DNA from: Alphaproteobacteria bacterium
GTDB taxonomy: Bacteria; Pseudomonadota; Alphaproteobacteria; CBCXTS01
DNA length: 64,000 nt
Direction of reading: 5' to 3'
Assembly: GCA_965178085.1 (NCBI GenBank)
Contig: CBCXTS010000021.1
Coordinates: 322,048 to 386,047 of the forward strand
In this document: positions 8,548 to 55,796 of the stretch, in pieces
Layout of the letters: each line of letters starts with the position of its first letter
Numbering within the stretch: position 1 is the stretch's first letter
Position numbers and translations under genes: made by a program
Notes under the pieces: generated by a model
The model's input: the letters and a program-made list of their open reading frames with translations, nothing else
What the model was told of the DNA's origin: nothing
The model's database searches: none

Positions 8548-8602
8548 ACCAATTACCCATTCATCGCAGCAATCTTTGAACAATAACAAAGTAAGGATCG
8601 CA

Positions 8603-20302: not shown

Positions 20303-21772
20303 TTAAAGCTGATGCTTTAAAATAACACGGGTTAAATTTTCTGCTGCAATAGCAATAGGATCTTTCCAGTCATTATAATATTGTTGGCGTATGATTTTAA
20401 AATCATCATACCATGGCGAATGCGTGGCGCTTTTACCCCATCGCCAACACGTTGTTGAACGATTTAACATCCAGACTGGCATGCCCATAGCACCAGCCAT
20501 GTGTGCGATCGAAGCATCGACAGTAATTAATATATCCAATGCACTTAAAATACCTGCAGTGTCATCAAAGCTTTCTACCTCATCCATTAAATCTATCCAT
20601 TGACTATTGATAGCCACTGTAGGGATATAATCTAAGCGTCTATCAAACTGCATTGCAAAAAAGTTAACATTTTCTGTCATCAGTAATGGTGATAACTGAT
20701 TGGGATTGATAGAACGTGCTCCATCAATAGCCTGCAGCATAGCATGTTGTCTTGCAGCGCCAGCCCAAAATATGCCTACGCGTATTTTATTTGGTAGTGC
20801 TTCTTGTGCAACACGCGCTTGCCATTTGTGCTTAGCGTGATCTGTTGGTTTTATATAGGCTGTGTTATGGCTTTTTATAACGTTTTCACTGCTAATGCGC
20901 ATATGCCAACCAAGCGATAAAAAACCTACCAAATAATCTATTTTTGCAATATCTATTTGATTTGGAAGGTCAAAAATATCGGCTGCATTTAACCATTCTA
21001 CAGGCACATCTTGATAGTTGTGTTGCAAGATGTCTCTAATCTCATAATGAACAAATATCAAAACTTTACTTGCTTTTTTTTGTTTCATCAAATCATAAAA
21101 TTGTCCAATATACCGTGCAAACTGAATTGTATCACCTATTCCTTGATCTGAAAACAGTAGTACTGATTTCCCTTCAATATCCTGCCCTGACCAGAAAGGA
21201 GCTTTGAAAGCATCCTTATATGCCTGGTAAAAAGGCGCTGATATTCTTGATTCATAATATCGAAAACCTTCTTCTAATTTTCCTTGCTGCAATAACACCG
21301 TAGCCAACACATGCTCTAAACTATCTTTTAAAGAATGCTCACCTAAATAAGACTTCAGTAATTGAACGGCTTTATCTTCACTCCCCATCCAACGCTCTGT
21401 GAGACCATAATTATAAGCATTACTTAGCGTGTTGTTTAATTCATAAGCTTTTTTAAAACAAACATGAGCATCTTTGACCATATATGCTTGCATATAAAAA
21501 TTACCCTCGAGTCTTAGTACCTTATCTGATTGTGGATACCGTTTGCCCCATTGCTGACAAAGAGACAGACCTATTTCTGATTGATGAAGATTATGTAACA
21601 TGTTTAAAACTGCAAGTATTTTGTCCTCATCGAGGTCATGCGTATTCAACAGACTGCATAAAGCATCCATAGCATTTGTACCGTCTCCTTTTTGAATTAA
21701 GGATTCGATTTCCTTGACACCACTCAAAAACAAATTGTAGTCTTTATCAGGTTGGGTTATCACAGAGTCCAT
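20303..21772 (-). CDS. TPR-repeat protein with a C-terminal GT9-like (heptosyltransferase / O-GlcNAc-transferase-like) domain
   Basis: N-terminal TPR helices. The C-terminal half carries FSDQGIGDTIQFARYI and DASIAHMAGAMGMPVWML, resembling the GT-B fold of family 9/41 transferases. Confidence 0.6.
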   Translation of the reverse strand: MDSVITQPDKDYNLFLSGVKEIESLIQKGDGTNAMDALCSLLNTHDLDEDKILAVLNMLHNLHQSEIGLSLCQQWGKRYPQSDKVLRLEGNFYMQAYMVKDAHVCFKKAYELNNTLSNAYNYGLTERWMGSEDKAVQLLKSYLGEHSLKDSLEHVLATVLLQQGKLEEGFRYYESRISAPFYQAYKDAFKAPFWSGQDIEGKSVLLFSDQGIGDTIQFARYIGQFYDLMKQKKASKVLIFVHYEIRDILQHNYQDVPVEWLNAADIFDLPNQIDIAKIDYLVGFLSLGWHMRISSENVIKSHNTAYIKPTDHAKHKWQARVAQEALPNKIRVGIFWAGAARQHAMLQAIDGARSINPNQLSPLLMTENVNFFAMQFDRRLDYIPTVAINSQWIDLMDEVESFDDTAGILSALDILITVDASIAHMAGAMGMPVWMLNRSTTCWRWGKSATHSPWYDDFKIIRQQYYNDWKDPIAIAAENLTRVILKHQL

Positions 21773-25418: not shown

Positions 25419-28325
25419 TTATTGCTCTGTGGAAGGACTATCGGGTATAATATTTTTTAATATACCTGGCAAAAGCAATGTGCTGGTATAGACTTCAATG
25501 TCTGGATTATCAACCAATCCTACAGCGCTAAAATCAGCTGCAAGCAGTGGTTGTAAACCTTTCTGCGTCGTTATATCACCAATGAATGGCACTGATCCTA
25601 ATAAATTATTTAACAAATAAAACGGCGCTACATTACCATCAATAGCAATCCAATCTGTACGTCTGTTATACTCACCACTAAAATTAACACCCAGTGTCAA
25701 ACTACTAGTGCGCCAATTTTCTATCTTAACAACATCGCCTTGATAATGTGCACTGCCTGTTGCTTTTGAAAAGCTAATACCATCATTTACTAACAAATCA
25801 ATAGGTGCAGACAACGACAAATGACTTAATAACGACAATAAAAATGGAGCATCACGAAGCGAATAATCTTCAAGGATAAAATCTAACCGCAGGCCATCAG
25901 AACTGTTTTGAGATACATTTTTACCTTTAAAAACTCCCCTATATAATGATTGACTAAAGTCAAAAGCGCGCAAGAAAAAACCAAGGTTTTGAATATTAAT
26001 ATTAAGATTTTGCTTGCCATCACCACTTGAATTCCAAATAAATTCTAGATTTGGTATATCGCTTACATTGAGATGATCTAATCCATCCTCTACCCCTTGT
26101 GCCATAAGGTATAATGTATCAAATTGTGCATTGTGCTTATCATAAATCAGGCGAATATCATGCATCATATTTTGATTAATGCTAATCTGATCCAAGGCAG
26201 CTAGTATTTTACCATCTGGTAGTATTTCTTCTAACAATTGATTAGAAAACATATCCTTTGCATTTGAGGATAAACCTGCTTGGTTTTTATTACTAATCAT
26301 CTTCAAATTTTTACTAGCAATACCAATTTCTAAACCTTCAGATTGTGTTTTTTTTATAAAACCCGATATTTGATTTTCTCCAAATTGTAAGTTTTCAATC
26401 TGCCAATCAAACCTACTGCTTTTATCAATTGTCATGCTAGAATCAAGAAAACTATCCAACGCCTCTACGCTCAATGTGTTTGCTTTTATGCTATAGGGCT
26501 TTATATATCCGCTGGAGTGAATGATAAAAGATTCTTCTAATTTTTTTGACCAACCAAAAAACGGTAAATCAAATTTAGCCTCAGTTAAGTCAATACTTAA
26601 ATCATAATTATTTTTGACATTATCTGCTATCGCTTTTGTAATTGTAATATCTAAATCACCCATACCTTCAACATAACCCGATATGATAGAATGCTTGATG
26701 AGAGACAAATCAATTGGCCCAGCAAAATGTATGATCGTTGGTATATTATCTTGATGAGGTAGCGCATGCTCTATTGAGACAATACCCTTAATGTCGCCTA
26801 TTTGCATATCTCCAGCAATACTATAGCCATCATTCAAGATATCACCGATTGTATGTTTGCTGATTGTAAGTTTTTTACCATGTAATATAAATGGAATTTG
26901 TCGGTGCTTTAATTGATAATGATTGATACTACCTTCAATAGTAAGTTCAGCCTGCTCATGAGAATCTAAAGAAGTCTCCAGTGGCAACAAAATTGTTAAT
27001 TTGCTTTTAACTTCACCACGCATGGCACTAACATCAAAAGATTTAAAGTTTGGATTGGAGACAATAAAAGCACTAAAAATATCAACAATACGTTTTACAT
27101 CACTATCAATATCTAACAAAATTTGTATTTGATTTTTTCCATCAACTTCAATAATATTACCTTGCAAATGGGTAGCTTTAAAGCCTTGACTGTTGCTTAC
27201 TGCATTAAAGGTTATCTTATTATTACTAAGAGTTATCTTGCCTTCAATATCAGATATTTCTTTTGCTGATTGATGCATTATTACAGAGGCATCTTTGACT
27301 TCAAGCACAGAGCTAAAATCTATTTGCGTAAAAACTCCATCACCACCGACCTTACCTTCAAAATCAAATGTAGCTTCCGTTAGATTACCAATTCCCATAT
27401 GAGTAGATAACCATACATAGACATTACTTTTAATTTGTTGTGGCCATTGCGCGTACACATCTGCAAAACTCACTTCCTTTATAAAATCTGAGTGGAAAAC
27501 CACTTTCCAACTTTTTTGATGTTCCTTTTTTTTAGAGCCATCTACATCTTGATTAGCAATTTCATCAATTCTAATGTAGCCTTTGCTCTCTAAATTACCT
27601 CGATGAAATTTAAGGTTTTTAATTTCCAAACTCTTCCCGTTACGCAAGGACAAATCGCCACTAGCTTGATCAATTAAAACTTCTTTATTATCAGCCAATG
27701 CAATATTAATATCCTTACCTTGAACGGGACCATCAAGCTCAAAATCATATGTTTTTTGATTAATCGTAAAATCAAAGCTACCAGAAAACAAACCATCAAC
27801 ACTGTTCAGCGTGTTTTCTAATAGAACAGAAGGCATCAAATGTTTGATATTTAATTTGCCTTTAAGAATATGATTATTTTCAATATCATACGATCTCAAA
27901 GAAACATGTGATTGAGCAAACTTCAAATCCCCTTCAATAAAGAAAACATTGCCTGAAAAATAAAAGCCAACCTGCAAAAATCCTGATACTCTAGCTGAGT
28001 TTTTTAAGCTTAAATCATACCCTATTGATTTTAAGACATGCGACAGAGACTGCATTTCAGCATCATTAAATCTTATATCAGCAACAAACCCAGAGCCCGT
28101 ATAATAATCAATATTATCAGTGCCCAAAAGCTGAACGGACACTCCAGATGGTACTGTATTTAAAAATAACTGCGAAAACTGTGCATAAGAGGTATCTACA
28201 GCAATCCAATTGAAGGTGCTTATAAGAAGTAATAGCTTTAGTCCAATACTTGCTAGAGCTCGTGTGGATATCTTCAATATATCAAACATGATTGTTGCAT
28301 AGGGTTGCAATATTATTAAGGCCAA
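25419..28325 (-). CDS. Large membrane-anchored periplasmic protein, AsmA/YhdP/TamB-like
   Basis: 968 aa with an N-terminal TM helix and then a long, repeat-poor, beta-rich sequence. The size and topology fit the AsmA-like family. Confidence 0.45.
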   Translation of the reverse strand: MALIILQPYATIMFDILKISTRALASIGLKLLLLISTFNWIAVDTSYAQFSQLFLNTVPSGVSVQLLGTDNIDYYTGSGFVADIRFNDAEMQSLSHVLKSIGYDLSLKNSARVSGFLQVGFYFSGNVFFIEGDLKFAQSHVSLRSYDIENNHILKGKLNIKHLMPSVLLENTLNSVDGLFSGSFDFTINQKTYDFELDGPVQGKDINIALADNKEVLIDQASGDLSLRNGKSLEIKNLKFHRGNLESKGYIRIDEIANQDVDGSKKKEHQKSWKVVFHSDFIKEVSFADVYAQWPQQIKSNVYVWLSTHMGIGNLTEATFDFEGKVGGDGVFTQIDFSSVLEVKDASVIMHQSAKEISDIEGKITLSNNKITFNAVSNSQGFKATHLQGNIIEVDGKNQIQILLDIDSDVKRIVDIFSAFIVSNPNFKSFDVSAMRGEVKSKLTILLPLETSLDSHEQAELTIEGSINHYQLKHRQIPFILHGKKLTISKHTIGDILNDGYSIAGDMQIGDIKGIVSIEHALPHQDNIPTIIHFAGPIDLSLIKHSIISGYVEGMGDLDITITKAIADNVKNNYDLSIDLTEAKFDLPFFGWSKKLEESFIIHSSGYIKPYSIKANTLSVEALDSFLDSSMTIDKSSRFDWQIENLQFGENQISGFIKKTQSEGLEIGIASKNLKMISNKNQAGLSSNAKDMFSNQLLEEILPDGKILAALDQISINQNMMHDIRLIYDKHNAQFDTLYLMAQGVEDGLDHLNVSDIPNLEFIWNSSGDGKQNLNINIQNLGFFLRAFDFSQSLYRGVFKGKNVSQNSSDGLRLDFILEDYSLRDAPFLLSLLSHLSLSAPIDLLVNDGISFSKATGSAHYQGDVVKIENWRTSSLTLGVNFSGEYNRRTDWIAIDGNVAPFYLLNNLLGSVPFIGDITTQKGLQPLLAADFSAVGLVDNPDIEVYTSTLLLPGILKNIIPDSPSTEQ

Positions 28326-28542
28326 TATTCTAGGATATAGATCAATTGTTTAAGAAACGCCGATTATATAATGAATCGTTGAATTGTAATTAAATTTTAA
28401 TTGAGTTGCCAAAACCTACAATGTGATATTAATAATATTAGCATAGGTATTTTATATATTAATAATCGCTACATAGCCTATAAATATTATCTCGTGATTG
28501 TTTAACATTTGCAACACACATTTTGAGACAAAAATATTTAAT

Positions 28543-31422
28543 ATGCATCTACAAACAAAGCTCCATTTACCAAAATTTATACTCACTAATCCTAAGCAAC
28601 GGCGCCATTTCCTTGCGCATTGTCAATTGCATAGTCCTTGGCTTGCAAGATTAACGCAACGCTATTATGATTTAGAAGAACATTTTATTGAAAATGACCC
28701 CAAAAGTGTTTTGAATAACATCTTGAAGCAACAAGAAAATGAATTTTGTACTAATATCAATCCATTTTCTGACATAGACACACTCCAACAACAATTATGC
28801 GTTGCTAAGCAGCGACTCTCTTTAGTGCTTGCATGGAACGAAGTTTCTGGAGCTGTATCAATCAAAGATACAATCAAAATATGGTCTGACTTTGCACAAA
28901 AAACTATCCAATGCAGTATTGTATCTGCCATCTATGCTCTATGCAAGCGTAAGAAATACGCTCTGCCAGATATGCCAAATTCACAAACTTTATGCCAAGG
29001 CATTACTGTACTTGCTATGGGAAAACTTGGCGAACAACTACTTAACTATTCAAGCGATGTCGATCTTATCATCTTGTACGATCTCAATAATACCACATAT
29101 CCTTTTACAAGCGAAGATATCATCAGAGCAGTAAAAACATTCGCTTATATTATGCACAATGAAACAGCAAAAGGATACATATTTAGGGTAGATTTTCGTT
29201 TGCGCCCTGATCCAGCTTCAACACCTATTGCTGTTAAGCTTGCCTCTGCTGAAATCTACTATGAAAGTGCAGCGAGGACCTGGGAGCGCGCTGCCATGAT
29301 AAAAGCACGCCCAGTTGCAGGTGACATCACCATGGGTAATCATTTTATCAAGCATATCCAATCTTTTATATGGAAAAAGTATCTTGATTTTTATGCGCTA
29401 GAAGAAATCGGGGCAATGGTCCGATCTAGCGTCCATCCAAAACATTTAAACCATATTGAAAACCTTGAAGGCTTTGACCTTAAACGTAGTTACGGTACAA
29501 TCAGAACAATAGAATTTTTTGTGCAAGCCTTACAATTAGTTTGGGGTGGTAGAGTACATTCTTTACGTACAGATTCAACACTTCTTTCATTAAATGCTTT
29601 ATCTAAAAATAAAATTATTCATAAAACGCAAGCCCGCAATTTAACCCAGGGCTATTATTTTCTGCGCTTATTAGAACATCGCGTACAAATGATTAACGAT
29701 CAGCAAACCCATAAAATACCTATCGGAGTAGATAAACTTGAGAGCTTTACCAAGTTTTGTGGATTAAATGACAAAACTGAATTATTTGCACGATTGCAAA
29801 TAGCAAATACTGAAATTTTAAAAACTACGTCTATTTTAAAATCTTCCAAAGGCAAAATGCAAATACAAATACTCAACCCAGCAACGAATATGCAAAATAA
29901 ACATGCCTTTGAAAACAACAGCACTGATACAAAAATTGTTCAGCAATGGTTTATAGACAGCGGATTTAAAAACGCAGAACAGGCATATGCCATTATCCAA
30001 CAATGGAAAAAATGTACATACAACGCATTACAAAATAATGAGGCAGCACGTGTTTTCCACAAGCTTGTCCCGACATTACTAGAAACAATCAGTCAGTCAT
30101 ACGATAAAGATATTGCGTTACGTAACTTTGATCTCTTTTTACAAAAATTACCAACTGGCGTGCAACTACTTTCAGCGCTCTCAGCAAATGCCAGTCTTTT
30201 GCGCCAACTAACAACAATCATCGCCAATGTCCCAAGAATGGCGCATATTCTTGCAAGACGCCCTGAGCGCTTAGATATGTTTTTTACCCCACATATCCAG
30301 CAATTATCTTTTCGACATATTACCAATAGTTTTAAAGCTGAAATACACCCTAGACTACCTTATGAAATATCACTTTCTGCTGCACGGAAATGGCTAAATG
30401 AAAGTATCTTTTTAATTGATAACCTACTTTTAGAAGGGCATCTGTCACTTGAGCAGTGGCAACTTGGCCACACCAATCTATGCGAATGCTGCATTAGACA
30501 GCTAATCCCAATCATTGGCAAAGAATATTTTGGAGAGAATGCTACAAAGATGTTGCAAAATTTTGCTATCTTGAGCTTTGGAAGAACTGCCACAAAATCC
30601 TTAACATGCAATTCTGATATTGATGGTGTTTTTATCTGGAAAGATAAAGGAGATACAAAAAAATTTGTTGCTTATAATCGATTTGCACAACGCATTATAA
30701 CTGCATTTGAGTTTGGTCATTCTGAAGGAATTTTATATACATTTGACACAAGGTTACGCCCTGATGGTACTAAATCAGCACTCGCAACATCATTATCACG
30801 CTTGTTGAATTACTACGAAAAACAAGAAGCATGGGGATGGGAAATATTAGCTCTGGCGTCTTCTAGGCCAATATTTGGCAATTCAACTATGAAGCAAAAA
30901 ATAAATTTAATGCGAAAGCAGACACTCACAGCAGCCAGCACCAATTCAAAAGCATTGTGTGACTCTCTTATCCATATTCGCAATCATCATATTAAATCGC
31001 ACCTTCAAACACATGCTAACAAAACTTTTAGCCTTAAGCATCAAAGCGGATGCTTGCTAGACCTTGAACTACTCACGCAGTATTTATTAATTGTATATTC
31101 AAACCAGCTTGAAACTCCGTATTCATTTCCAGCAGAAAAAAGTAAAAAATGGCAAATATTGACAACCGATCCCATATTCAAGCAATTTGCTCCTCAACAA
31201 TTGCAAAAAGCATATCAATTATTTGAAGCAGCAATTGCAATAACCCGCATAAGCGGCCGTCAATTGGATGAACTCGTTGAAGAGCAAGGTAAACTTGCTA
31301 AAAGACTAAACCAGCTAGCTGGTTTAGATGAAAATGAATCTTTTTTTTCATCGCTTGATCTTGCACGCAGTTATGTCCATAATGCCTATGACATAATCTA
31401 TAACAAATCAGCTCATCACTAA
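28543..31422 (+). CDS. glnE: Bifunctional glutamine synthetase adenylyltransferase/adenylyl-removing enzyme
   Basis: Two nucleotidyltransferase modules (GKLGEQLLNYSSDVDLIILYD, and LSFGRTATKSLTCNSDIDGVFIW) in a protein of about 960 aa. The ORF track starts at a TTG at 28498. The ATG at 28543 is more likely. Confidence 0.85.
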   Translation: MHLQTKLHLPKFILTNPKQRRHFLAHCQLHSPWLARLTQRYYDLEEHFIENDPKSVLNNILKQQENEFCTNINPFSDIDTLQQQLCVAKQRLSLVLAWNEVSGAVSIKDTIKIWSDFAQKTIQCSIVSAIYALCKRKKYALPDMPNSQTLCQGITVLAMGKLGEQLLNYSSDVDLIILYDLNNTTYPFTSEDIIRAVKTFAYIMHNETAKGYIFRVDFRLRPDPASTPIAVKLASAEIYYESAARTWERAAMIKARPVAGDITMGNHFIKHIQSFIWKKYLDFYALEEIGAMVRSSVHPKHLNHIENLEGFDLKRSYGTIRTIEFFVQALQLVWGGRVHSLRTDSTLLSLNALSKNKIIHKTQARNLTQGYYFLRLLEHRVQMINDQQTHKIPIGVDKLESFTKFCGLNDKTELFARLQIANTEILKTTSILKSSKGKMQIQILNPATNMQNKHAFENNSTDTKIVQQWFIDSGFKNAEQAYAIIQQWKKCTYNALQNNEAARVFHKLVPTLLETISQSYDKDIALRNFDLFLQKLPTGVQLLSALSANASLLRQLTTIIANVPRMAHILARRPERLDMFFTPHIQQLSFRHITNSFKAEIHPRLPYEISLSAARKWLNESIFLIDNLLLEGHLSLEQWQLGHTNLCECCIRQLIPIIGKEYFGENATKMLQNFAILSFGRTATKSLTCNSDIDGVFIWKDKGDTKKFVAYNRFAQRIITAFEFGHSEGILYTFDTRLRPDGTKSALATSLSRLLNYYEKQEAWGWEILALASSRPIFGNSTMKQKINLMRKQTLTAASTNSKALCDSLIHIRNHHIKSHLQTHANKTFSLKHQSGCLLDLELLTQYLLIVYSNQLETPYSFPAEKSKKWQILTTDPIFKQFAPQQLQKAYQLFEAAIAITRISGRQLDELVEEQGKLAKRLNQLAGLDENESFFSSLDLARSYVHNAYDIIYNKSAHH

Positions 31423-35183: not shown

Positions 35184-36407
35184 TTATCTCTTTATTTTGA
35201 GTGAGTTAGCAGTTTCATTCGCTACCCAACTTAAAAAACAGCGTGTTGACATTTCCATTGCTGGGGTTAATGTTCCACCATTTAAATACATGCCGCGGCG
35301 GCCTTTTTGCATGCTTTCAACAGGGCCTATATCTTCAGAGAATACGCTCCTCCATAATTCTTTATTAGCCCGCCTAAGCTCTCCCATATGATCTTCACAT
35401 ATTGATGGGTCAAAATAAAAAATCTCTACACGCTCTCGAACCTTATCAACACCTAAAGGCTCAAGCCATATAACATAAAAATGATCGCGGTGTATCCCTA
35501 AAAGCACATTGGGATAGAGCGCTATATACTCACCGCGTTTTTTCCACCTTGCTGGCAAACTTGCAGCATCAGCAAAAGCAAGTCCATTCGATAACAAGTT
35601 AGGATTATAAACTGTTGTACCTTGTCCAGAATAAAGATTTTTTGATAAAATATCATAATGGTCTTCAAGCTTAGAATACTCATTTAAGCTTGGATGTACC
35701 ATTGGCAGATGGTAGCTTTCACAATAATTTTCTACTGCCAGTTTCCAATTACAATTAAGTTCAAACAAAATTGTTGAATCTTCACCGCAATGGTATAATT
35801 TTTTATCTCCAAATACTTCCCATCGTTTGATTAAATCTGAATAGTGATCGGCAAAATCAGTAGCAGTACCTGATAGATTAACAAAAATCATACCCATCCA
35901 TTCATAATGTCTGATGGATGTAAGTTGTACATTTTCTAAATCAAAGCGTAAATCATGATTGCAATTTGCACCTCCTATATGGGGTGTTTTACGTAACTTT
36001 CCTTGTAAATCATAGCACCATGCATGATAAGGACATGTTAATAAATTGCTTTTTAAGCGTCTTGGTTCTTCTACAAGTATAGCTCCACGATGTTTGCATA
36101 TATTTTCAAAAACTTGCAGTTTACCTTCTAAGTCACGCACAAGCACAATAGGCCTGTCAAATAGTACAACTGGCTTAACTGTTCCTTTGTCAGAAATTTC
36201 ATGCGAAAAAGCTGCAATGGTCCATTTTTTTTCAAAAAGGGCATCTTGTTCAAGCTTGTACCATTCATCATCAATATAGCAAGTATCAAAAAGACCTGGC
36301 GATGGTTTTTCACGATCGTTTAACAAACGTACTAAATTTGCTAATGCAGCACGATCATCTGAGCACGCATGATTAGTTTTACCTGTAGCATTAAAACGAG
36401 TTAACAT
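35184..36407 (-). CDS. Rieske non-heme iron oxygenase alpha subunit (GbcA/CntA-like)
   Basis: Rieske motif CKHRG...CPYHAWCYD and a mononuclear iron motif ENYCESYHLPMVHP in a 407-aa protein. Confidence 0.8.
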   Translation of the reverse strand: MLTRFNATGKTNHACSDDRAALANLVRLLNDREKPSPGLFDTCYIDDEWYKLEQDALFEKKWTIAAFSHEISDKGTVKPVVLFDRPIVLVRDLEGKLQVFENICKHRGAILVEEPRRLKSNLLTCPYHAWCYDLQGKLRKTPHIGGANCNHDLRFDLENVQLTSIRHYEWMGMIFVNLSGTATDFADHYSDLIKRWEVFGDKKLYHCGEDSTILFELNCNWKLAVENYCESYHLPMVHPSLNEYSKLEDHYDILSKNLYSGQGTTVYNPNLLSNGLAFADAASLPARWKKRGEYIALYPNVLLGIHRDHFYVIWLEPLGVDKVRERVEIFYFDPSICEDHMGELRRANKELWRSVFSEDIGPVESMQKGRRGMYLNGGTLTPAMEMSTRCFLSWVANETANSLKIKR

Positions 36408-36533: not shown

Positions 36534-39440
36534 TTAAGACGCTCTAAAAGGATTTCCTATGATAACACGTAAATAACCTTTTTTATTACTAACACTACGA
36601 AGTTTTAGTTGTAAGTACACAGGATGGCGTTTCTTATCATCAGACCAAAAGCTTGAATATGTTGCCATTTGTACTTCCGGCAATAAAGCTTGAAACAACG
36701 GAATTCCTTCTGTTTCTTGGCGATTAACAAAACTTTTCTGTTGATCTGGAAGTGCTGCACTGATTTTACTTAATGTTCTATCAAAAGCAAACCGCGCTTG
36801 CTCTGGATTATCAAGTAAATAACTGTCTATTTGTAAAGCAACTAACTTGCTATCTATCGTTTTATCAAACTGTAAAATGACATTAACAGGAGACATTTCA
36901 AGCCATTTATTAGCATTTAATTTGCACGCAACAAATTCATTTGCCAATTCTTGACACTTTCCAAGCTTTGATTTTAAGCTATCATATGTATCACGCCAAC
37001 TTAGTCCAAGCATTAAATGATGATAATCACTTTCATATGCAGATAAAACTAATATTTCCTGCATTTCAAGATTGCCAGAAAGCGATGCAAAATATGCTGC
37101 GTTCTGTCCTTGCTTATTTTTAGTTCTAGGATCAGCACCTGCTGCTAAAAGCGTACGTATTTCACTCGTTCTATTAAGAGCTGCTGCGCGCATTAGAGGT
37201 GTATAATCATCATATACCGAGTCTGGATTACTGCCATTTTGTAGTAAATGCTCTAAAAGTCCTCTATATCGCTGATCATTTGCATGATCAATACTAAAAT
37301 GAAGTGCCCTTATTGATGGTTGTAGCCCTGCAGCAACTAAAGCATTTGTCATGTCCCATTGATTTTCAAGAGCAACAAAATCTACTAAATTAAGTCTATT
37401 ATTTCCAAAACTATCCGGTCTATCTAATTGTATATGATCAAGAATTACTCCTTCTGGTCTTTCTTCAATCAATTCACGCAATTTTGTTACGTTGCCATTT
37501 CTTACTGCACGCTCAACTGCACCAGCAAAATCAGCTAGTAATGCACTCCCAGCTCCCGATGGGATTATGCCGGCAAGCTTTTGTCCTGCTTCTAATTTTT
37601 GTATTCGCTTTGGAGAATAGTTATTTGCATATTGATTGTTTATTTCAGATTCAGGGCCAAGTTCAAGGCTTGATTCTGTTCGCGTTATTAAAATTCTATC
37701 TAACTGTGCTTGAATTTTTGGCAACCCATCAGCTACATCCAGAGGTCCCGTTGCACAACCAGGCGATGGGTCTAGCGATGCTCCATAATTTGCTAAAACT
37801 TCAACTACTTCTCTTTGTTCATAGGCAATTGCTGCAGCAATTGGTGTCCAGCAACCTTGTGCTCCACCAGGTACTTCACTAGGAGCGCCTAATTTTAAAA
37901 GACGCTCTAATGCCTTCATCTGCCCTTCAATAGCAAGACGATGCATAATAGAGCGACCATCTCCACTATCAATAGACACATCAGCGCCGCCTTTGATTAA
38001 AAAACTTAACGTGGTTAAGTCTCCTAAATTTGCTGCAATCAGTAACGCTGGTTTTCCATATTTATCTCTTACATTGGGATCAGTTCCTGTCTCAAGTAAA
38101 CCTTTTACTTCAAGAGAGTTTCTAGCTCGTACCGCTTTAATTAAATCTGATTCCGGTAACATTTTACGCGCATCCCGCTCAAGGGAAAACACAACCCTTG
38201 TAGCCACATCTGGATTTGCTACAGTAATGGCCATTCCTGCTGCAATCACACCAACAATCAATCCGCTTGCAAGCGCTGTTCGATTACCTCTAACCTTAGC
38301 AGCACGGCGCTGTCTGGAACGCTGCACTCTTGAATTTGCTGGCAACGGTGCACGCGTACCATTGCGTATAAAAGATTCCCTACTTCGTGACTTTATGTCT
38401 GAGTTTTCTGGGCTGCTACCAAGAGGGTAACCTATTGTTTCATCATTTTTAGATGATTGCCCTTCATACATCGCTCCGCTATCAATGAGTTGCATTTTAT
38501 CGCGCATATTTTGCTGCAAATTATTGCTATCTTGCTCTTGGGGTTGATTAACTTGAGGCTCATGATTGATGTTATTCTTAATAATATCCTTTGACTTTTG
38601 CTCTAAATCATCTTGCTCTTGTTCTGTTAGGACGTTTTCTTTAAGTGAATGATTATCTAACTGCGTGTATTTTTTAATAGTCGCATTGGTATCGAAGTCA
38701 CTATTTAAAGTGTCAGAATCTTCTTGAGACAGTTTGTTTTCTGTCTTTTGTGCATTCTCAACAAGGTTAGAAAGCAATAGCGGCTCAACAGTAGATTGAT
38801 ATGATGGAACAAGGGGGGGGAGGTCAACACGTGTTTTATCTACCAAATCTATATGTACAGCTTGAGTATGATGATTTAGCGTGTTTCTGTACTCATCGTG
38901 CTCTGTAGCTTGTTCTAGATAAACTTCATGCTCTAAAGCTTCTGGTCTATAGCCTTTTCCAGTTAAACTTCTACGCTTGACATAACCGCGATAATCTAGT
39001 TGATCTGTAAATAACTCTTTATCACTCCATAACGACGGTTGGTTTAAGTTTTGATCGTTATTTAGTAATGATAATTGTGGATCAGATCGTACTTCATTGC
39101 TGCTTAGTAGATTTTGTTGCCCGTCTTGAAGAGAACTATCTTTTAAAATTGCAGATGAATTCTGATTGCCAAATGTGCTGATGTTGTTATTATCACTTTG
39201 CAATAAAACCTGTTGGGTCTTGACACCAGTAATACGCGATCTACTTTCTTCAATCAATCGTAACACATCATGCGTATTATCTTGTGTATTAAATGCAATA
39301 TAGCGCTGTGCATTAGCGCTATCATCAAAGCGAATTAAATTAACCCACTGACCAGCCTTGCGTCCTTGCACCAGATATGAGATATTTGCTGTAAAATGAC
39401 GAAACCCTTGTCCGTAACGTTTCAGCGCTTTTTTTACCAT
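36534..39440 (-). CDS. Large ankyrin-repeat protein with a central TM helix
   Basis: 968 aa. The N-terminal 370 aa are polar and low-complexity. A hydrophobic segment (ALASGLIVGVIAAGMAITVANP) is preceded by a basic cluster (RSRQRRAAKVRGNR). At least six ankyrin repeats follow (for example ALLIAANLGDLTTLSFLIKGGADVS and TPLMRAAALNRTSEIRTLLAAGADPRTKNKQGQNAAYFAS). The C-terminus is basic. Confidence 0.75.
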   Translation of the reverse strand: MVKKALKRYGQGFRHFTANISYLVQGRKAGQWVNLIRFDDSANAQRYIAFNTQDNTHDVLRLIEESRSRITGVKTQQVLLQSDNNNISTFGNQNSSAILKDSSLQDGQQNLLSSNEVRSDPQLSLLNNDQNLNQPSLWSDKELFTDQLDYRGYVKRRSLTGKGYRPEALEHEVYLEQATEHDEYRNTLNHHTQAVHIDLVDKTRVDLPPLVPSYQSTVEPLLLSNLVENAQKTENKLSQEDSDTLNSDFDTNATIKKYTQLDNHSLKENVLTEQEQDDLEQKSKDIIKNNINHEPQVNQPQEQDSNNLQQNMRDKMQLIDSGAMYEGQSSKNDETIGYPLGSSPENSDIKSRSRESFIRNGTRAPLPANSRVQRSRQRRAAKVRGNRTALASGLIVGVIAAGMAITVANPDVATRVVFSLERDARKMLPESDLIKAVRARNSLEVKGLLETGTDPNVRDKYGKPALLIAANLGDLTTLSFLIKGGADVSIDSGDGRSIMHRLAIEGQMKALERLLKLGAPSEVPGGAQGCWTPIAAAIAYEQREVVEVLANYGASLDPSPGCATGPLDVADGLPKIQAQLDRILITRTESSLELGPESEINNQYANNYSPKRIQKLEAGQKLAGIIPSGAGSALLADFAGAVERAVRNGNVTKLRELIEERPEGVILDHIQLDRPDSFGNNRLNLVDFVALENQWDMTNALVAAGLQPSIRALHFSIDHANDQRYRGLLEHLLQNGSNPDSVYDDYTPLMRAAALNRTSEIRTLLAAGADPRTKNKQGQNAAYFASLSGNLEMQEILVLSAYESDYHHLMLGLSWRDTYDSLKSKLGKCQELANEFVACKLNANKWLEMSPVNVILQFDKTIDSKLVALQIDSYLLDNPEQARFAFDRTLSKISAALPDQQKSFVNRQETEGIPLFQALLPEVQMATYSSFWSDDKKRHPVYLQLKLRSVSNKKGYLRVIIGNPFRAS

Positions 39441-39685: not shown

Positions 39686-40051
39686 TTATATTTTTGAAGA
39701 AAAACCTATCACAATAATACCCCCTACAATCAGCAAAACACCTATCAAATACAATGTAGGATAACGCTGCGCAAACAAAAACCAATCAGCCAAAGGTACT
39801 AGAACAAATCCTAATGCCATAAAGCTATATCCTATTCCTAGGGGTACAGTTTGTAAAATATGAACCCACAGCAATGTAGCAATAGCATAAAGTACAATTG
39901 CTAATAAAAAAAAGGGCGTCAAAAAAAGCTTAACAATATTTTCAATAATATTTTGCTGACCCATTGATATAGCTGTATACTTGAATAGAATCTGCCCACA
40001 AGCCATCAAGAAAACAAAACCAATCAGCTTTAAAAATATCGTTATCGTCAT
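39686..40051 (-). CDS. Small four-TM EamA/SMR-like protein (ArnE/ArnF-like flippase subunit family)
   Basis: 121-aa ORF that is hydrophobic throughout, with four predicted helices and a Gly-rich last helix (IGVLLIVGGIIVIGF). Confidence 0.5.
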   Translation of the reverse strand: MTITIFLKLIGFVFLMACGQILFKYTAISMGQQNIIENIVKLFLTPFFLLAIVLYAIATLLWVHILQTVPLGIGYSFMALGFVLVPLADWFLFAQRYPTLYLIGVLLIVGGIIVIGFSSKI

Positions 40052-40348
40052 TATACAAATTCACCTATAAGTAGCTAATTAATGATATTAGAGACAGTTA
40101 CCATACTGTATATGATAGATGAACCCATCAAAATAAATTCAAGCCAGCTATGTTGTTTTATACATTATTGTTGAAATTTAAAATGCTAATATTGACAATT
40201 AATAAATCATAAAAGCTATTAAAACAACCCAAGCAAGCAATCAAACCAATCTTGACAAGAATGTCTATTTGAGTGTTATAAAGGCATTAAATTTTAAATT
40301 GACATGATAACAAAAGCAATGCAATGTTTGTTTTAAAATGATGACTAT

Positions 40349-40404
40349 CAGTTAAACTAGATTCCTTAAATTACTTCAGTTAAACTAGATTCCTTAAATT
40401 ACTT
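40349..40404. repeat. Perfect tandem duplication of a 28-bp unit (CAGTTAAACTAGATTCCTTAAATTACTT x2) immediately upstream of the PagL-like gene
   Basis: Read directly in the sequence. The duplication ends 16 nt before the ATG at 40421. Confidence 0.85.
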
Positions 40405-40420
40405 TAGTAAGTGCTATGCC

Positions 40421-40948
40421 ATGAAGCTTTTTCGATTTTATTATGTCTTTTTACTTGCTGCTATTAGCGTTTTTATTGCACCGGCATATGGTCAAACTGT
40501 ACAACAAAACCAAGACCCTAAAACTCTTCTAAGGGTTGCGGCGGGATCTTTTAATGAGTTTAAAAGTAAGCGCAATGGTGCTGTTACAGTTGATCTTACC
40601 TTGCCTTATAGCATCGATTTACCTTATGATTGGTGGTTTGTTCAACCTTTTGTAGGTGCAATGATTACATCAAAAAATGCTGCATACGGATATGCAGGAT
40701 TTAAGCTTGACTACCCTATGAATGAAAACATCTATCTTACCCCTTCATTTGCCCCGGGGCTATTTTCACATGGTGATGGCAAAGATTTGGGTTATTGGAT
40801 TGAGTTTAGAAGTGGCATGGAAGTTTCTTGGAAATTTGACAATAATAATAGACTTGGACTTGAAGTAGCACATATATCAAATGCTGGTTTATCCAATAAA
40901 AACCCGGGCGTTGAATTATTGACGTTAAGCTGGACATATCCTCTTTAA
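40421..40948 (+). CDS. Outer-membrane lipid A deacylase, PagL-like (acyloxyacyl hydrolase)
   Basis: Signal peptide, a beta-barrel of about 150 aa with aromatic girdles, and a C-terminal HxSNAG motif (VAHISNAGLS) as in the PagL His/Ser site. Confidence 0.6.
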   Translation: MKLFRFYYVFLLAAISVFIAPAYGQTVQQNQDPKTLLRVAAGSFNEFKSKRNGAVTVDLTLPYSIDLPYDWWFVQPFVGAMITSKNAAYGYAGFKLDYPMNENIYLTPSFAPGLFSHGDGKDLGYWIEFRSGMEVSWKFDNNNRLGLEVAHISNAGLSNKNPGVELLTLSWTYPL

Positions 40949-51503: not shown

Positions 51504-52604
51504 CTATTGTTTTTGAATTAAAGCATCCCATCTAGCAAAAAACTTTTCTGGACTATAATCAATAACAATCTGCTGAGCTGCTTTTGATAAACTTACTCTT
51601 TGTTGTTCATCATCTAATAATTTTTTTATCAAATTGCTTAGCATCCCTACATCGCCTATATTAAAAACCCTACCATTTACCCCGTCATTTATAATGCTTA
51701 TATTGCCACGACAATTACTTGCTATTGTTGGAATACCTGCTGCCAATGCCTCACATAAAGCATTCGAAAATCCTTCATAGAACGATGGAAAAACAAATAA
51801 ATCTGCTTGCGCCAAATGCTGCGCAACACAATTGCTTTGCCCTGGCAAAAAAACGCGCGCCTCTAATTGAGAACTAGCGATCAATTTTTTGAGTTTTGTC
51901 CGCTCTGGTCCTTCTCCATAAATCGTTAATGTTATGTCAGGATATGATTGGGCAATTCTTGTAAATGACTTAATCAACGTTTGATGATCTTTATACCACA
52001 TCAATCTTCCAACACTAACAATATGCTTTGGAAACTTTGATATTTTTTTTACTGCAAATGAAGACGGATAAACACCATTGGGAATGATTTTAATACGCCT
52101 TTGGCATGCATCAGTAAAATAATCCTGATAATGCTCAGATTGCAAAACAATATAATCTGCTAAAGGATAAAGTTTTAGTCGTAGCCATTGATACAATGTA
52201 GGTAATTTGTGCATATAAGGATCAGTACGCTCTGTAACAATCGTTGTCTTGCGTAACCCAAACGCAGCAATTAACATTGCTATATTGACTGTATCCATAA
52301 AGGATATGATGACATCAGGGTTTTGAAACTTTAATTCCTTTCTTAAAAGGATAAGACGCTTTAAAATACTCAAAATCTGCATATAAAATCGTGTAGATTG
52401 AACAAGACAGTTCAATTGTACTAATTTAATATCAGCTGTAAGGTCATAAATAGGTAAGTCGCTAGGACCTGCAAATGTTATAATAGTGATCTCATGCTTT
52501 TTGCTAGCATAGTAGTTAGCGAGTTTTGCTAAAACCGTTTCTGCACCACCAATGAAAGAAAGGTGTGGAATGATCAATATAATACGCATACACAATACTA
52601 ACAC
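51504..52604 (-). CDS. Family 4 (GT-B, group 1) glycosyltransferase
   Basis: The C-terminal EX7E-type region (FVFPSFYEGFSNALCEALAAGIPTIASN) marks a retaining GT4. It lies immediately downstream of the candidate system. Confidence 0.8.
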   Translation of the reverse strand: MLVLCMRIILIIPHLSFIGGAETVLAKLANYYASKKHEITIITFAGPSDLPIYDLTADIKLVQLNCLVQSTRFYMQILSILKRLILLRKELKFQNPDVIISFMDTVNIAMLIAAFGLRKTTIVTERTDPYMHKLPTLYQWLRLKLYPLADYIVLQSEHYQDYFTDACQRRIKIIPNGVYPSSFAVKKISKFPKHIVSVGRLMWYKDHQTLIKSFTRIAQSYPDITLTIYGEGPERTKLKKLIASSQLEARVFLPGQSNCVAQHLAQADLFVFPSFYEGFSNALCEALAAGIPTIASNCRGNISIINDGVNGRVFNIGDVGMLSNLIKKLLDDEQQRVSLSKAAQQIVIDYSPEKFFARWDALIQKQ

Positions 52605-52695
52605 AAATGACTAAAACTGCAAAAATCAACTACCATATATGTCACTATTTATATTATCCACAATTTATAATCTGCCTATATCAATAGTAATTATT

Positions 52696-53700
52696 TTATG
52701 GCGAAAGGCCAATAAATGTTCCACTATTTTTATTTGTAATCTCGCGCATTAAAATAGAATAACGTTCAGAACCACCAAATCCTATACCATGTACTTTAGC
52801 TTTTGGTTTGCCTGTAATGACATCACGATTTAACATGTTAAGCGTTTGAACAACTTGGTCATAAGACACCCTATCATTAAAATCATCTCCAAATATATAA
52901 ATTGATAAACTTACACCAGGCTTTGCATAAGTTTTCAGTGCAGTTACAAGTCCCTCGACAGGTGAACTGTTAGAATCAGGCGTCCATCTTGACAAAAAAT
53001 TAAGTGCATTTTTACGCCGCGCTTTCGAATCTTTTATCCACTTACCCTTAGTGTTACTTACCAAATAGCGACCATTATCATTCATGATTTGAAAACCTTT
53101 TACAATTGGATGCGCAGTTAAAATATTATCAAGAAGCCGCAAAAGTGTAGGTTTAAATTTATCCATACTGCCTGAGGTGTCTACAATAAAAATAATGTAC
53201 TCGCTATCAACAGGTATCCCTCCAATTTCTTTAATTGGCTTATCAGTTGGTTTGTTGGCTTTTAAAATACCAGCTTTTTGAACAGCATTAGAATCGGCCA
53301 TACTAACCGATGAAAGCTTTTGTTGTTGGCGTATAATATCTTCATTTGCTCGATCAAGTGTATCTAGTTGTTGGTTGAGTTCTTCTAATGTTTGTTCTAA
53401 ATTTGGTAAAGATTGCTGAGTATTAGCGTGAGTTTGCTGTTGGCTATTTAATTTACTCTTAGCTTTAGAAATTTTATGGCTTAATTGGTTAACATGTTTT
53501 TCCAATGCAATAACTTCTGATAGCAATTCTGTTATCACCGCTACATCAGTACTTGCAACGACCTCAGTTGAATCAGATTGAATTGGTTGTGAATTGCCCT
53601 TCGAGATTAAAACCAATAACACCACGGCACCAAATCCACACGATATAATATCTAGAAAAGATAGACTAAAAATTTCAAGAACAGTGCGTTTTTTTTTCAT
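52696..53700 (-). CDS. Single-pass membrane protein with an ExbD/TolR-like Asp-containing TM helix, a coiled coil, and a periplasmic vWA domain with MIDAS (paralogue 2)
   Basis: TM helix LEIFSLSFLDIISCGFGAVVLLVLI, compared with TolR PLLDVLLVLLLIF. The TM helix is followed by about 100 aa of heptad-rich sequence. The vWA MIDAS is FIVDTSGSMD (DxSxS), with a Thr in GLVTAL and an Asp in IFGDDFND. Confidence 0.7.
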   Translation of the reverse strand: MKKKRTVLEIFSLSFLDIISCGFGAVVLLVLISKGNSQPIQSDSTEVVASTDVAVITELLSEVIALEKHVNQLSHKISKAKSKLNSQQQTHANTQQSLPNLEQTLEELNQQLDTLDRANEDIIRQQQKLSSVSMADSNAVQKAGILKANKPTDKPIKEIGGIPVDSEYIIFIVDTSGSMDKFKPTLLRLLDNILTAHPIVKGFQIMNDNGRYLVSNTKGKWIKDSKARRKNALNFLSRWTPDSNSSPVEGLVTALKTYAKPGVSLSIYIFGDDFNDRVSYDQVVQTLNMLNRDVITGKPKAKVHGIGFGGSERYSILMREITNKNSGTFIGLSP

Positions 53701-53713
53701 AAAATTTTATCAC

Positions 53714-54832
53714 TCATGGCCAACTTGGCGCAGGTGTCATTAATATACCTTGCGTTTTAAATGCCCATTGCCAATACATATTAGCAGCTTGAGGGTCGCC
53801 CTCCATTGGAAGCAAGACAATGCTCACTGGGACATTAGCACCAAAACTTTCCTTAACAGCGCTTTGTAATAATTGCTGTCGGCATTCCCCTGATATTGTT
53901 TTACGGTTTAATACACACCGTGAAAACACAGTGCTTGAACCTTGCGTTGGCAAACCATCTGTTACAATGTAAAGGTTTGTAATAGCAGGGTTAATCTCTT
54001 TCATTTTTCTTAATCCTGCTGCTAAGTTTGTAGCGTTTTCAGGAATAAAATCATCAATATTTTTTTGCAGTGCAGCAATATCTTGTGCTTGTGTTGTGCG
54101 CATTAACTGCTTTGGTCCCATCATATGCGCTTCTTGATTATAAAATACTACTGAAAACTCTGAACTTTCTGGTATGTTTGACAAAAGCCAATTTATAATG
54201 CGCTTCGTTCTGATCCATTTGGGACCTGCTTTTTTATCACTAGATTTTTTAATTTTACGTGCAATAATATCAATTAACTTTTCATCTGTCATTGAAGCAC
54301 TAGCATCTATTAGCAAACCAATGCGTTTTCCTTCTACAGAAAGACCAAGTAAATACTGCTCTGTTTCTTTGCCTTTTGTTTGAATATTATTTTTTGCTAA
54401 TTTTTGGCTTTCAGATTGCTGTTTTATTTTTTTTTCAATAAATTCTACACGCTGTTTTGTAAGTTCTTCAAGTTTTGTACGCGATTGATCAATATTTTGC
54501 TGTTTTTGAGAAAGCGTTGCTTGTTTTGCTTGAACATCTAAACGCAGTTTTTGAACCTTTTGCTCTGTTACAATATGCTGCTTCAACTGCTTTTCATACT
54601 GAGCATCTAAATCTATCAATGTCTGTTGTAAATTTGTAGCATGTTCAGATAATGATTTGATGTCCAAACGCAATTGTTGCGTTTGAGTTGACACTACTTC
54701 TTCTGGGGCATTAAGGTCTATCTCTGGATCAAACTTTACCAACATTAAAATTAATATAACCGCGCCCAATCCGCATGACATAATATCTAAAAAAGCTAAA
54801 TTAAAACTCTCAATAATTTTTCTTGAGCGCAT
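53714..54832 (-). CDS. Single-pass membrane protein with an ExbD/TolR-like Asp-containing TM helix, a coiled coil, and a periplasmic vWA domain with MIDAS (paralogue 1)
   Basis: TM helix IESFNLAFLDIMSCGLGAVILILMLV, about 65% identical to its paralogue's TM helix. A coiled coil of about 120 aa follows. The vWA MIDAS is LLIDASASMTD, with NATNLAAGL and YIVTDGLPTQ. Confidence 0.7.
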   Translation of the reverse strand: MRSRKIIESFNLAFLDIMSCGLGAVILILMLVKFDPEIDLNAPEEVVSTQTQQLRLDIKSLSEHATNLQQTLIDLDAQYEKQLKQHIVTEQKVQKLRLDVQAKQATLSQKQQNIDQSRTKLEELTKQRVEFIEKKIKQQSESQKLAKNNIQTKGKETEQYLLGLSVEGKRIGLLIDASASMTDEKLIDIIARKIKKSSDKKAGPKWIRTKRIINWLLSNIPESSEFSVVFYNQEAHMMGPKQLMRTTQAQDIAALQKNIDDFIPENATNLAAGLRKMKEINPAITNLYIVTDGLPTQGSSTVFSRCVLNRKTISGECRQQLLQSAVKESFGANVPVSIVLLPMEGDPQAANMYWQWAFKTQGILMTPAPSWP

Positions 54833-54841
54833 TAGATTTTA

Positions 54842-55585: not shown

Positions 55586-55599
55586 GTTAACTGTCTCCT

Positions 55600-55743
55600 T
55601 TAAATATCAATGGGAAATGAAACTGGCGCGTCAATACTAATCACTTCTTGTCCATATGCAAGAACAGCGGTTATCAATAAAATTAAAACAAACAAAAACA
55701 AATAAAACTTCTGTTTTTTATTATTTTTCAATAATTGCATCAT
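55600..55743 (-). CDS. Unannotated 47-aa single-TM peptide between the FGE-fold gene and the MotA-like gene
   Basis: Manual minus-strand translation gives MMQLLKNNKKQKFYLFLFVLILLITAVLAYGQEVISIDAPVSFPIDI*. It is below the ORF-track length cut-off. It lies 14 nt upstream of the MotA-like start and is on the same strand as the operon. Confidence 0.35.
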   Translation of the reverse strand: MMQLLKNNKKQKFYLFLFVLILLITAVLAYGQEVISIDAPVSFPIDI

Positions 55744-55796
55744 CTCTATGTCACTACCAAACAATCATTACTATAAAAGAATATCTATATCTGTTT

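Follow-up and report, generated by a model that had tools for sequence, protein, structure and literature searches.

A large alphaproteobacterial ankyrin-repeat protein as a probable member of a bitopic inner-membrane family

Is a large ankyrin-repeat protein of an alphaproteobacterium exported to a host cell, or does it work in the envelope of the cell that makes it? This question is raised by a gene located at positions 36534 to 39440 (minus strand) of a 64,000-nucleotide stretch of contig CBCXTS010000021.1 (Alphaproteobacteria bacterium), the whole of which is referred to below as the window. An earlier reading made from the letters alone (hereafter the sequence-only reading) had proposed an effector secreted through a type IV or type I secretion system (T4SS or T1SS) by a host-associated alphaproteobacterium. 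The present analysis leads elsewhere: the gene product probably belongs to a family of bitopic inner-membrane proteins of marine Rhodospirillales-like Alphaproteobacteria, which would act as scaffolds or tethers of the envelope, with no translocation into a host. Most likely, the ankyrin repeats point into the periplasm of the bacterium itself; the family, as far as its sequences tell, is a previously undescribed one and rests on two domains that current libraries lack. From three family-wide signals, namely the distribution of positive charges around the membrane helix, the pattern of cysteines and the fold of the C-terminal domain, which agree with each other, we infer an orientation with the N-terminus inside and the C-terminus outside (N-in/C-out).

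Gene and domain layout

The gene and the parts of its product are as follows (positions in the window, residues of the protein).

36534..39440, minus strand: complete ankyrin-repeat gene, ATG start, 968 codons plus stop, from the list of open reading frames (ORFs)
39189..39395, minus strand: N-terminal module, residues 16-84, conserved in MAFFT alignments of 30-32 family members, predicted to be cytoplasmic
38334..39188, minus strand: linker, residues 85-369, polar, L/S/N/Q/D/E-rich and net negative, predicted to be cytoplasmic and probably disordered
38277..38333, minus strand: basic cluster SRVQRSRQRRAAKVRGNRT, residues 370-388, with eight K/R, conserved in the homologue P0002
38214..38276, minus strand: transmembrane helix ALASGLIVGVIAAGMAITVAN, residues 389-409, with Gly/Ala-rich small-xxx-small spacing, predicted to be an N-in/C-out signal-anchor
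37743..38153, minus strand: ankyrin block 1, residues 430-566, four repeats, from Pfam/NCBIfam matches and a consensus scan
37548..37742, minus strand: inter-block linker, residues 567-631, short in this protein, with a low predicted local distance difference test (pLDDT) score and few regular elements in the model
37026..37547, minus strand: ankyrin block 2, residues 632-805, about five repeats, two of them degenerate
36537..37025, minus strand: C-terminal alpha/beta domain, residues 806-968, which defines the family and ends in IIGNPFRAS

The 968-residue ORF announced by the sequence-only reading was recovered as such, and an NCBI contig of 955,272 bp has an entry for the very same protein (P0001). 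Since 968 codons stay open in DNA of 37% guanine-plus-cytosine (GC), a chance ORF is ruled out. The GC content of the gene is 38.6% vs. 36.7% for the window, across the whole of which it remains at about 37%; a recent horizontal acquisition of the gene was considered and dropped, its GC being near that of the window.

Concerning the repeats, Pfam models of the Ank clan were matched by Ank_2 (E = 1.8e-21, 76.9 bits for a cut-off of 27.3), Ank_4 (8e-18, 64.5 bits), Ank (1.8e-14, 53.5 bits), Ank_3 (51.2 bits) and Ank_5 (37.2 bits), and tandem 33-residue repeats above the gathering score place the protein in this clan. In block 2, Ank_2, Ank and Ank_5 match at residues 727-800, and PDB entries of DARPins and ankyrin proteins were matched by residues 63-201 of the 370-968 fragment, with E down to 2e-37. 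In the consensus scan, residues 428-561 hold four repeats, and three others were located at 637-669, 744-776 and 777-809; of these seven, four score higher than 95% of shuffled sequences. Two degenerate helix pairs further appear in the AlphaFold2 model of residues 370-968, a low-confidence model from a two-sequence alignment that reached a pLDDT of 47 and is too poor for use. With these pairs, the total comes to about seven to nine repeats in two blocks, in line with the six or more that had been predicted.

The N-terminal module reads SYLVQGRKAGQWVNLIRF...HDVLRLIEE in the window protein, for a family consensus YWIQGR.G..W.NLE....A...L..L....DELRL.EA, whose invariant Trp is W32 (39345-39347). 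It was matched by BLASTP to residues 40-100 of the family member P0020 (E = 3.7e-5). A comparison of the family profile of this module with the PDB gave a borderline match to 6h48 chain A ('Orf20', 96 residues; E = 0.02 over 44 columns), which may be due to chance. Residues 71-370 are rich in L/S/N/Q/D and carry a net charge of -18, and the linker cannot be aligned even to the 65%-identical homologue P0002. The sequence-only description of the N-terminal half as polar and of low complexity holds for residues 71-370, but residues ~16-84 form the conserved module. Further on, residues 389-409 make up the sole strongly hydrophobic segment (Kyte-Doolittle 2.21, vs. 1.52 for the runner-up, located within an ankyrin repeat); this segment, almost unchanged in P0002, lies directly behind the basic cluster, as the same reading had seen.

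A family of collinear homologues

A k-mer-prefiltered search with the whole protein returned the protein itself, one partial homologue (P0002) and otherwise generic ankyrin matches; the family was under-reported in this search because ankyrin words crowded the candidate list. P0002 (MEM7071465.1, a partial protein from a metagenome-assembled genome, MAG) shares 65% of its residues with the window protein over a stretch that starts at the basic cluster and runs to the truncated end of P0002, and ahead of the cluster the two do not align. When the 178 non-ankyrin residues 791-968 were used as the query of a phmmer search against 1.84 billion cluster representatives, 46 representatives were obtained (41 with E < 1e-10), always matched at their extreme C-terminus and mostly 600-1030 residues long. 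The family comprises at least 46 clusters at 50% identity, a lower bound as it stems from a single-sequence search.

Over residues ~370-968, the window protein is collinear with the family members (27-33% identity, E from 1e-57 to 1e-98, BLASTP), and the N-terminal module was matched separately in the same comparison. The shared architecture consists of the N-terminal module (~70 residues), a linker, a K/R cluster, a single helix, ankyrin block 1, a second linker, ankyrin block 2 and the C-terminal domain. The first linker, of about 100-280 residues, varies in length and composition across the family, the latter tracking genome GC: members with a high GC have P/A-rich linkers, the window protein and other low-GC members Q/N/S/D-rich ones. 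As it does not align even among close relatives, this linker is most likely disordered. The inter-block linker reaches ~230 P/A-rich residues in other members.

Ankyrin blocks are optional within the family. Both are missing from P0039, P0045, P0046, P0048 and P0050, block 1 from P0024, P0028, P0035 and P0037, and block 2 from P0034, P0044, P0047, P0051 and P0053. The core of the family is therefore made of the N-terminal module, the linker, the helix, the spacer and the C-terminal domain. Where block 1 is present, it often carries a Cys just ahead of TPL and a second Cys one repeat further (C.[TS]P...[GA]C in 20 of 32 members), and an SG..AG....G motif is conserved in the helix of a subfamily (8/33).

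Neither terminal domain has a match in Pfam, NCBIfam or PDB sequences. Nothing was retrieved with the N-terminal 80 residues in a k-mer-prefiltered search, with the whole protein against the contigs of species-representative genomes, or with the C-terminal domain against plasmids (tblastn), and a metagenome scan with a two-sequence alignment gave only generic ankyrin proteins.

Membrane topology and cysteine pairs

Every full-length member, ankyrin-free ones included, has exactly one strong hydrophobic segment. No N-terminal signal-like segment was seen in any family member, and the helix is therefore taken as a putative uncleaved signal-anchor. The sequence-only reading had named a buried ankyrin helix, in place of a transmembrane one, as a finding that would argue against an effector role; a buried ankyrin helix is excluded, the segment lying outside the blocks, 20-40 residues ahead of the first repeat, and being present in members devoid of repeats.

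On average, 5.1 K and R are found in the 20 residues that flank the helix on its N-terminal side vs. 1.5 in those on its C-terminal side; the N-terminal count is the larger one in 30 of 32 members and never the smaller one (Wilcoxon p = 1.5e-6). For the window protein, the 15-residue flanks hold 7 vs. 4 K/R, or 7 vs. 2 with a slightly different helix end. A single helix, the lack of a cleavable signal and this positive-inside bias are the features of a bitopic type II protein, and the family-wide bias agrees with the earlier claim that the repeats would lie beyond the membrane.

As for cysteines, the C-terminal side of the helix has four of them, or two where block 1 is missing, and they come in conserved pairs; on the N-terminal side, half of the members have none. 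In the window protein, C530 (37851-37853) and C562 (37755-37757) are one repeat length apart in block 1, and C829 (36954-36956) and C839 (36924-36926) belong to the C-terminal domain, the latter pair being invariant in 36 of 36 sequences. This pattern is typical of disulfide-bonded extracytoplasmic domains, with an even number of conserved cysteines, of which C829 and C839 are predicted to lie on adjacent antiparallel strands.

The C-terminal domain

The AlphaFold2 model of the C-terminal domain, based on a 36-sequence alignment, has a pLDDT of 95.7 and a predicted TM-score (pTM) of 0.90. In it, some eight antiparallel strands form a sheet, onto which one long helix (89-106) and two short helices pack. 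In this model, C829 and C839 oppose each other on the first beta-hairpin (model strands 36-42 and 46-51), with a geometry that would fit a cross-strand disulfide. Eight positions (W, C, C, F, D, P, W and P) are invariant in the alignment, and the C-terminus of the family follows the pattern G[FY]YR.[IV]IGNPFR. The basic C-terminus reported by the sequence-only reading is there in terms of charge (net +6 over the last 30 residues), but it is no free tail: these residues are modelled as the final conserved beta-strands of the folded domain (pLDDT 89-98).

A Foldseek search of the model against the PDB gave nothing significant; the best, non-significant fold neighbours were DcrB (E = 0.04, TM-score 0.36-0.44), PsbP, PA1624, TiME and Tsi3, all periplasmic or lumenal. 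Among predicted viral structures, the best match was the Erwinia phage lipoprotein A0A5Q2F5G3 (E = 4.6e-7, TM-score 0.62, root-mean-square deviation 3.9 A over 167 columns), followed by a second phage lipoprotein. On the strength of these lipoproteins and of the periplasmic or lumenal neighbours, the nearest structural relatives of the domain are exported proteins. The profile of the domain found nothing significant among PDB sequences, and a PHROGs scan of its alignment gave only scattered single matches (E > 0.01).

Distribution and genomic context

The genomes that carry family members span 38-64% GC. Members were found in Rhodospirillaceae MAGs (HAT35457.1, and MBL22467.1 in GCA_002722095.1), in the 0.22-0.45, 0.45-0.8 and 0.22-3 um fractions of TARA Oceans station 124, on a 5.1-Mb contig and in an Alphaproteobacteria MAG (MDJ0684706.1). 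Orthologues in free-living relatives, which the sequence-only reading had itself cited as an argument against an effector role, do exist and count against it.

In six independent genomes (L089, L092, L093, L094, L096 and L097), the family gene occupies the same position beside a divergent folP-folK pair. At these loci, folB or a gene with an MlaC domain is often directly upstream, with Sua5, FAD oxidase and acyl-CoA dehydrogenase genes further up; the recurring block, found at 44-64% GC, runs Sua5, FAD-linked oxidase, acyl-CoA dehydrogenase, (VWA), folK-folP, (folB/MlaC) and family gene. Judged from gene order, these family genes are positional orthologues within a housekeeping region. The contexts differ elsewhere, with flagellar and purine-catabolism genes (L088), an Elm1-like gene upstream and a GATase gene downstream (L091), or a TolC-like OEP gene upstream at a distance of 3 bp (L095). 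In the window, a Sua5 gene (6556-7521) lies ~30 kb from the ankyrin gene, and neither folP nor folK was seen among the ORFs scanned.

Several neighbours are related to the envelope: MlaC twice (L093, 7094-7738; L094, 7060-7680), EamA-type transporters twice (among them L089, 12873-13784, 2 bp downstream), OEP once (L095, 4965-6998) and, in the window, an ArnE-like gene together with PagL (39686-40948). They suggest a role in the envelope, and are too scattered to count as an association.

The genes on either side of the ankyrin gene in the window are the following.

35184-36407: gene for a Rieske/ring-hydroxylating oxygenase
39686-40051: gene for an ArnE/SMR-like membrane protein of 121 residues, with the PagL gene beyond it

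These are the two flanking genes that had been described. The upstream gap measures 245 bp at 27% GC, close to the AT-rich ~250 bp announced, but the downstream one is 126 bp (34% GC) instead of ~240-250 bp. The idea that the gene forms a conserved operon together with its Rieske or ArnE-like neighbour was dropped, since neither the 80 AtpD loci nor any of the family contexts show this arrangement.

Concerning the source organism, its AtpD is at most 82-83% identical to those of species representatives, the best being MAGs and single-cell genomes of marine Rhodospirillales, Rhodospirillaceae, Thalassospiraceae and unclassified Alphaproteobacteria; it is 76% identical to that of a Bartonella sp. 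locus. AtpC identity is ~40%, and synteny past atpC is absent from the 80 AtpD loci. On these sequence comparisons, the organism is no relative of Bartonella, Rickettsia or Anaplasma; it seems to be a deep-branching alphaproteobacterium that is Rhodospirillales-like and has a reduced genome. Among 5.8 billion clusters, there are hardly any close relatives of its proteins.

Proposed mode of action and alternative explanations

For the family reading, which we hold to be probable, the following mode of action may be proposed. The N-terminal module and the linker would be kept in the cytoplasm, and the helix, as an uncleaved signal-anchor, would lead the ankyrin blocks and the C-terminal domain to the periplasm, where two disulfides (C530-C562 and C829-C839) would stabilise them. 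There, the ankyrin solenoids would dock envelope proteins, the lipoprotein-like C-terminal domain would contact a partner located further out, and the cytoplasmic module would couple this scaffold to a cytoplasmic partner, the protein working throughout inside the envelope of its producer and entering no host cell. By analogy, a scaffold or tether is the most likely mode of action, with a transmembrane sensor as the main variant. A more specific version may be put forward only tentatively: the protein would be a trans-envelope landmark or tether peculiar to marine Rhodospirillales-like Alphaproteobacteria and a functional analogue of PodJ or TolA, the YWIQGR module and linker engaging a cytoplasmic partner and the disulfide-stapled GNPFR domain engaging components of the outer envelope, the whole being kept in a reduced genome of ~1 Mb as part of a minimal envelope-organising machinery.

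Several points weigh against the family reading as just stated. Ankyrin repeats are far more common in cytoplasmic or secreted proteins than in periplasmic ones. The scaffold or tether function is inferred from architecture, and the proposed topology is derived from the positive-inside rule and from cysteine patterns. No neighbour is conserved that would indicate a pathway: MlaC, EamA-type, OEP and lipid-A genes are found beside the family gene in only one or two genomes each. The source genome may be reduced (one contig of 955 kb, of which 64 kb of sequence are covered here). Finally, a crude Hessa-scale sum gives ~0 to +0.8 kcal/mol over 19-21 residues, i.e. a moderate hydrophobicity for the helix, in a range that is also assigned to many T4SS membrane effectors (2026 review, PMC12981334). 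By itself, this hydrophobicity discriminates neither for the envelope model nor for the effector one.

That the protein is a secreted T4SS or T1SS effector, whose helix would enter a host membrane and whose repeats would bind host proteins like the Ank proteins of Legionella, Coxiella, Rickettsia and Orientia, appears very improbable to us. Such an effector could well display ankyrin repeats, a moderately hydrophobic helix of the kind met in many T4SS membrane effectors and a long disordered region, but conserved cysteine pairs on the C-terminal side, one of them invariant, do not suit it, and the Legionella Ank models were matched through the repeats only and far below their cut-offs. The charge of +6 over the last 30 residues would suit an effector too, but it is carried in the model by a conserved strand of a folded domain (pLDDT ~89-98), not by a flexible signal. 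An AT-rich upstream region (27% GC), a possibly small source genome and the TolC-like OEP gene of L095 also speak for an effector; yet the family is conserved in Rhodospirillaceae of the planktonic free-living fraction and on a 5.1-Mb contig, six genomes share the folP-folK position, the composition of the gene is not anomalous, and within the 64-kb window no secretion-system genes were found. Nor is there a FIC or BID domain, the protein being no canonical Bep, as had rightly been noted. The effector proposal is thus unsupported, owing to the free-living homologues, the folded C-terminus and the repeat-only matches to effector models. A reversed topology, or a mere association with the membrane, is also quite unlikely: the ankyrin blocks and the C-terminal domain would then be cytoplasmic, with a helix that anchors them to the inner face or inserts N-out. 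A reducing compartment is where most of the bacterial ankyrin proteins characterised to date fold, no cleavable signal peptide is present here and exporting ~560 residues behind an internal signal-anchor at residue 389 is demanding, but an N-out insertion would require the signal-less export of 388 mostly acidic and polar residues. Moreover, the positive-inside bias holds in 30 of 32 members and is never reversed, even-numbered cysteine pairs are conserved on the C-terminal side only, the C-terminal domain resembles exported lipoproteins, and the P/A-rich spacers that follow the helix in many members resemble periplasm-spanning linkers, for which TonB and TolA offer a comparison.

With the topology left as proposed, the protein could instead be a signalling device, its periplasmic part sensing a ligand or the state of the envelope and its N-terminal module sequestering or releasing a regulator, perhaps by means of regulated proteolysis of the kind known for anti-sigma factors; this is unlikely, though worth keeping in view. 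The minimal members P0039, P0045, P0046 and P0048, which retain the N-terminal module, helix, spacer and C-terminal domain, have the layout of a one-component transmembrane sensor, but the N-terminal module bears no similarity to anti-sigma, helix-turn-helix or other regulator domains. It is in the juxtamembrane region and the helix that the window protein and P0002 are best conserved, and the subfamily helix motif SG..AG....G (8/33) would also suit a signalling helix, as would, on weak evidence, a rhomboid gene 4 kb away in the window. However, no sigma factor or regulator occurs among the conserved neighbours, and the extracytoplasmic function (ECF) sigma factor gene of the window (14729-15316) is 21 kb away, with downstream ORFs of its own.

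If the envelope scaffold is confirmed as the function of the family, periplasmic ankyrin solenoids would join the known ways of organising the Gram-negative envelope, and annotators would gain two new domain models, for the cytoplasmic YWIQGR module and for the GNPFR alpha/beta domain with its invariant cysteine pair, both of which are defined here. The family occurs in abundant, uncultured marine Alphaproteobacteria, where it has been unannotated so far, and the retention of the gene in a seemingly strongly reduced genome suggests a function that is important to the cell itself.

Other features of the window

As a whole, the window carries an ordinary set of envelope and metabolic genes, with RodA, PBP2, MreBC, BamE, ATP synthase, GlnE, dimethylglycine dehydrogenase, a glycerol kinase with GlpD, the ECF sigma factor and a LysR regulator.

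A second ORF of 968 residues (25419-28325, minus strand), divergent from glnE (28498-31422), has no Pfam match. It was considered as a paralogue of the ankyrin protein and dropped, no similarity being found; we presume, as a guess, that it could be a divergent AsmA/YhdP-like envelope protein. At 51504-59418 (minus strand), a same-strand run presents an unusual combination of genes for a GT4 glycosyltransferase, a coiled-coil ORF, a VWA-domain protein, a MotA/ExbB-like channel protein, a 681-residue protein with FGE-sulfatase and PEGA domains and a 530-residue TPR protein. A 571-residue fusion of a 2Fe-2S ferredoxin domain with a class III adenylate/guanylate cyclase domain is encoded at 8540-10255 (plus strand). 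At the thresholds used, no Pfam match was obtained for the minus-strand ORFs 10329-11381, 20303-21772, 59475-60740, 60763-61395 and 3673-4236, the last of which stands in the place expected for mreD, between mreC and the PBP2 gene.

Comparison with known systems

Among known systems, the Ank effectors of Legionella and the T4SS transmembrane effectors share with the window protein a moderately hydrophobic transmembrane segment, ankyrin repeats and a long extramembranous C-terminal part; the T4SS effectors have one or two such segments and, for some of them, ankyrin repeats (PMC12981334). However, the present family is chromosomal, syntenic with housekeeping genes and found in free-living plankton, and its C-terminus is predicted to be folded, with an invariant cysteine pair. 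The NCBIfam models of AnkY/LegA9, AnkH/LegA3 and AnkX/LegA8 score 36.9, 25.7 and 22.6 bits on the window protein, vs. cut-offs of 600, 600 and 1400, and over the family, whose other members behave alike, effector models reach 20-43 bits vs. cut-offs of 450-1400, through the repeats only. As regards T4SS or T1SS substrates in general, the C-terminal 30 residues are basic (+6) but are modelled as part of a folded domain, and no secretion genes were found in the 64 kb of the genome covered by the window. As for the Bep proteins of Bartonella, no FIC or BID match was obtained at E <= 0.1, and the organism is not a Bartonella.

PodJ of Caulobacter, TonB and TolA combine a cytoplasmic part that includes a disordered region, one transmembrane helix, periplasmic repeats or a proline-rich spacer and an outward C-terminal globular domain. 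This layout is similar to that of the family, but no relationship at the sequence level is known. Coiled coils, Sel1/TPR repeats and a domain that binds peptidoglycan are present in PodJ, whereas TonB and TolA are anchored at their N-terminus and cooperate with ExbBD or TolQR. To our knowledge, none of the three has ankyrin repeats or the domains found here. For the C-terminal domain only, the DcrB/PsbP proteins and the phage lipoproteins offer a likeness, being exported and made of an antiparallel sheet against helices, whereas the present domain is fused to a membrane-anchored protein instead of being lipid-anchored.

The closest parallels are ankyrin proteins of the periplasm. RARP-1 of Rickettsia was once taken as secreted and was later shown to be periplasmic, where it binds envelope proteins (10.1101/2022.02.23.481736). 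Like the window protein, it is alphaproteobacterial and has a large disordered region together with C-terminal ankyrin repeats. It differs by a cleavable N-terminal Sec signal, by being soluble and by the periplasmic location of its disordered region, whereas here no N-terminal signal-like segment is present, the anchor is internal (389) and the linker would be cytoplasmic. By its description, RARP-1 is also set apart in having neither an N-terminal module nor a GNPFR C-terminal domain, and no Rickettsia homologues were found in the whole-protein k-mer search or in the C-terminal-domain phmmer search. AnkB of Pseudomonas aeruginosa and Bd3460 of Bdellovibrio bacteriovorus are likewise ankyrin proteins that bind proteins in the periplasm of their producer (10.1101/2022.02.23.481736; PMC4686830). 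Both are small, with a single ankyrin block, and tied to one specific partner, through the KatB catalase operon or DD-endopeptidase immunity; they are not known to have a cytoplasmic module, a second ankyrin block or a C-terminal alpha/beta domain. In the window, no katB or endopeptidase gene adjoins the ankyrin gene.

Such cases call for caution towards the default reading of bacterial ankyrin proteins as effectors, the evidence gathered here pointing, as for RARP-1, to the bacterium's own periplasm. The most fitting description of the family is that of a new variation on the theme of periplasmic ankyrin scaffolds, with an internal signal-anchor, a cytoplasmic module and linker, two ankyrin blocks and a distinctive C-terminal domain.

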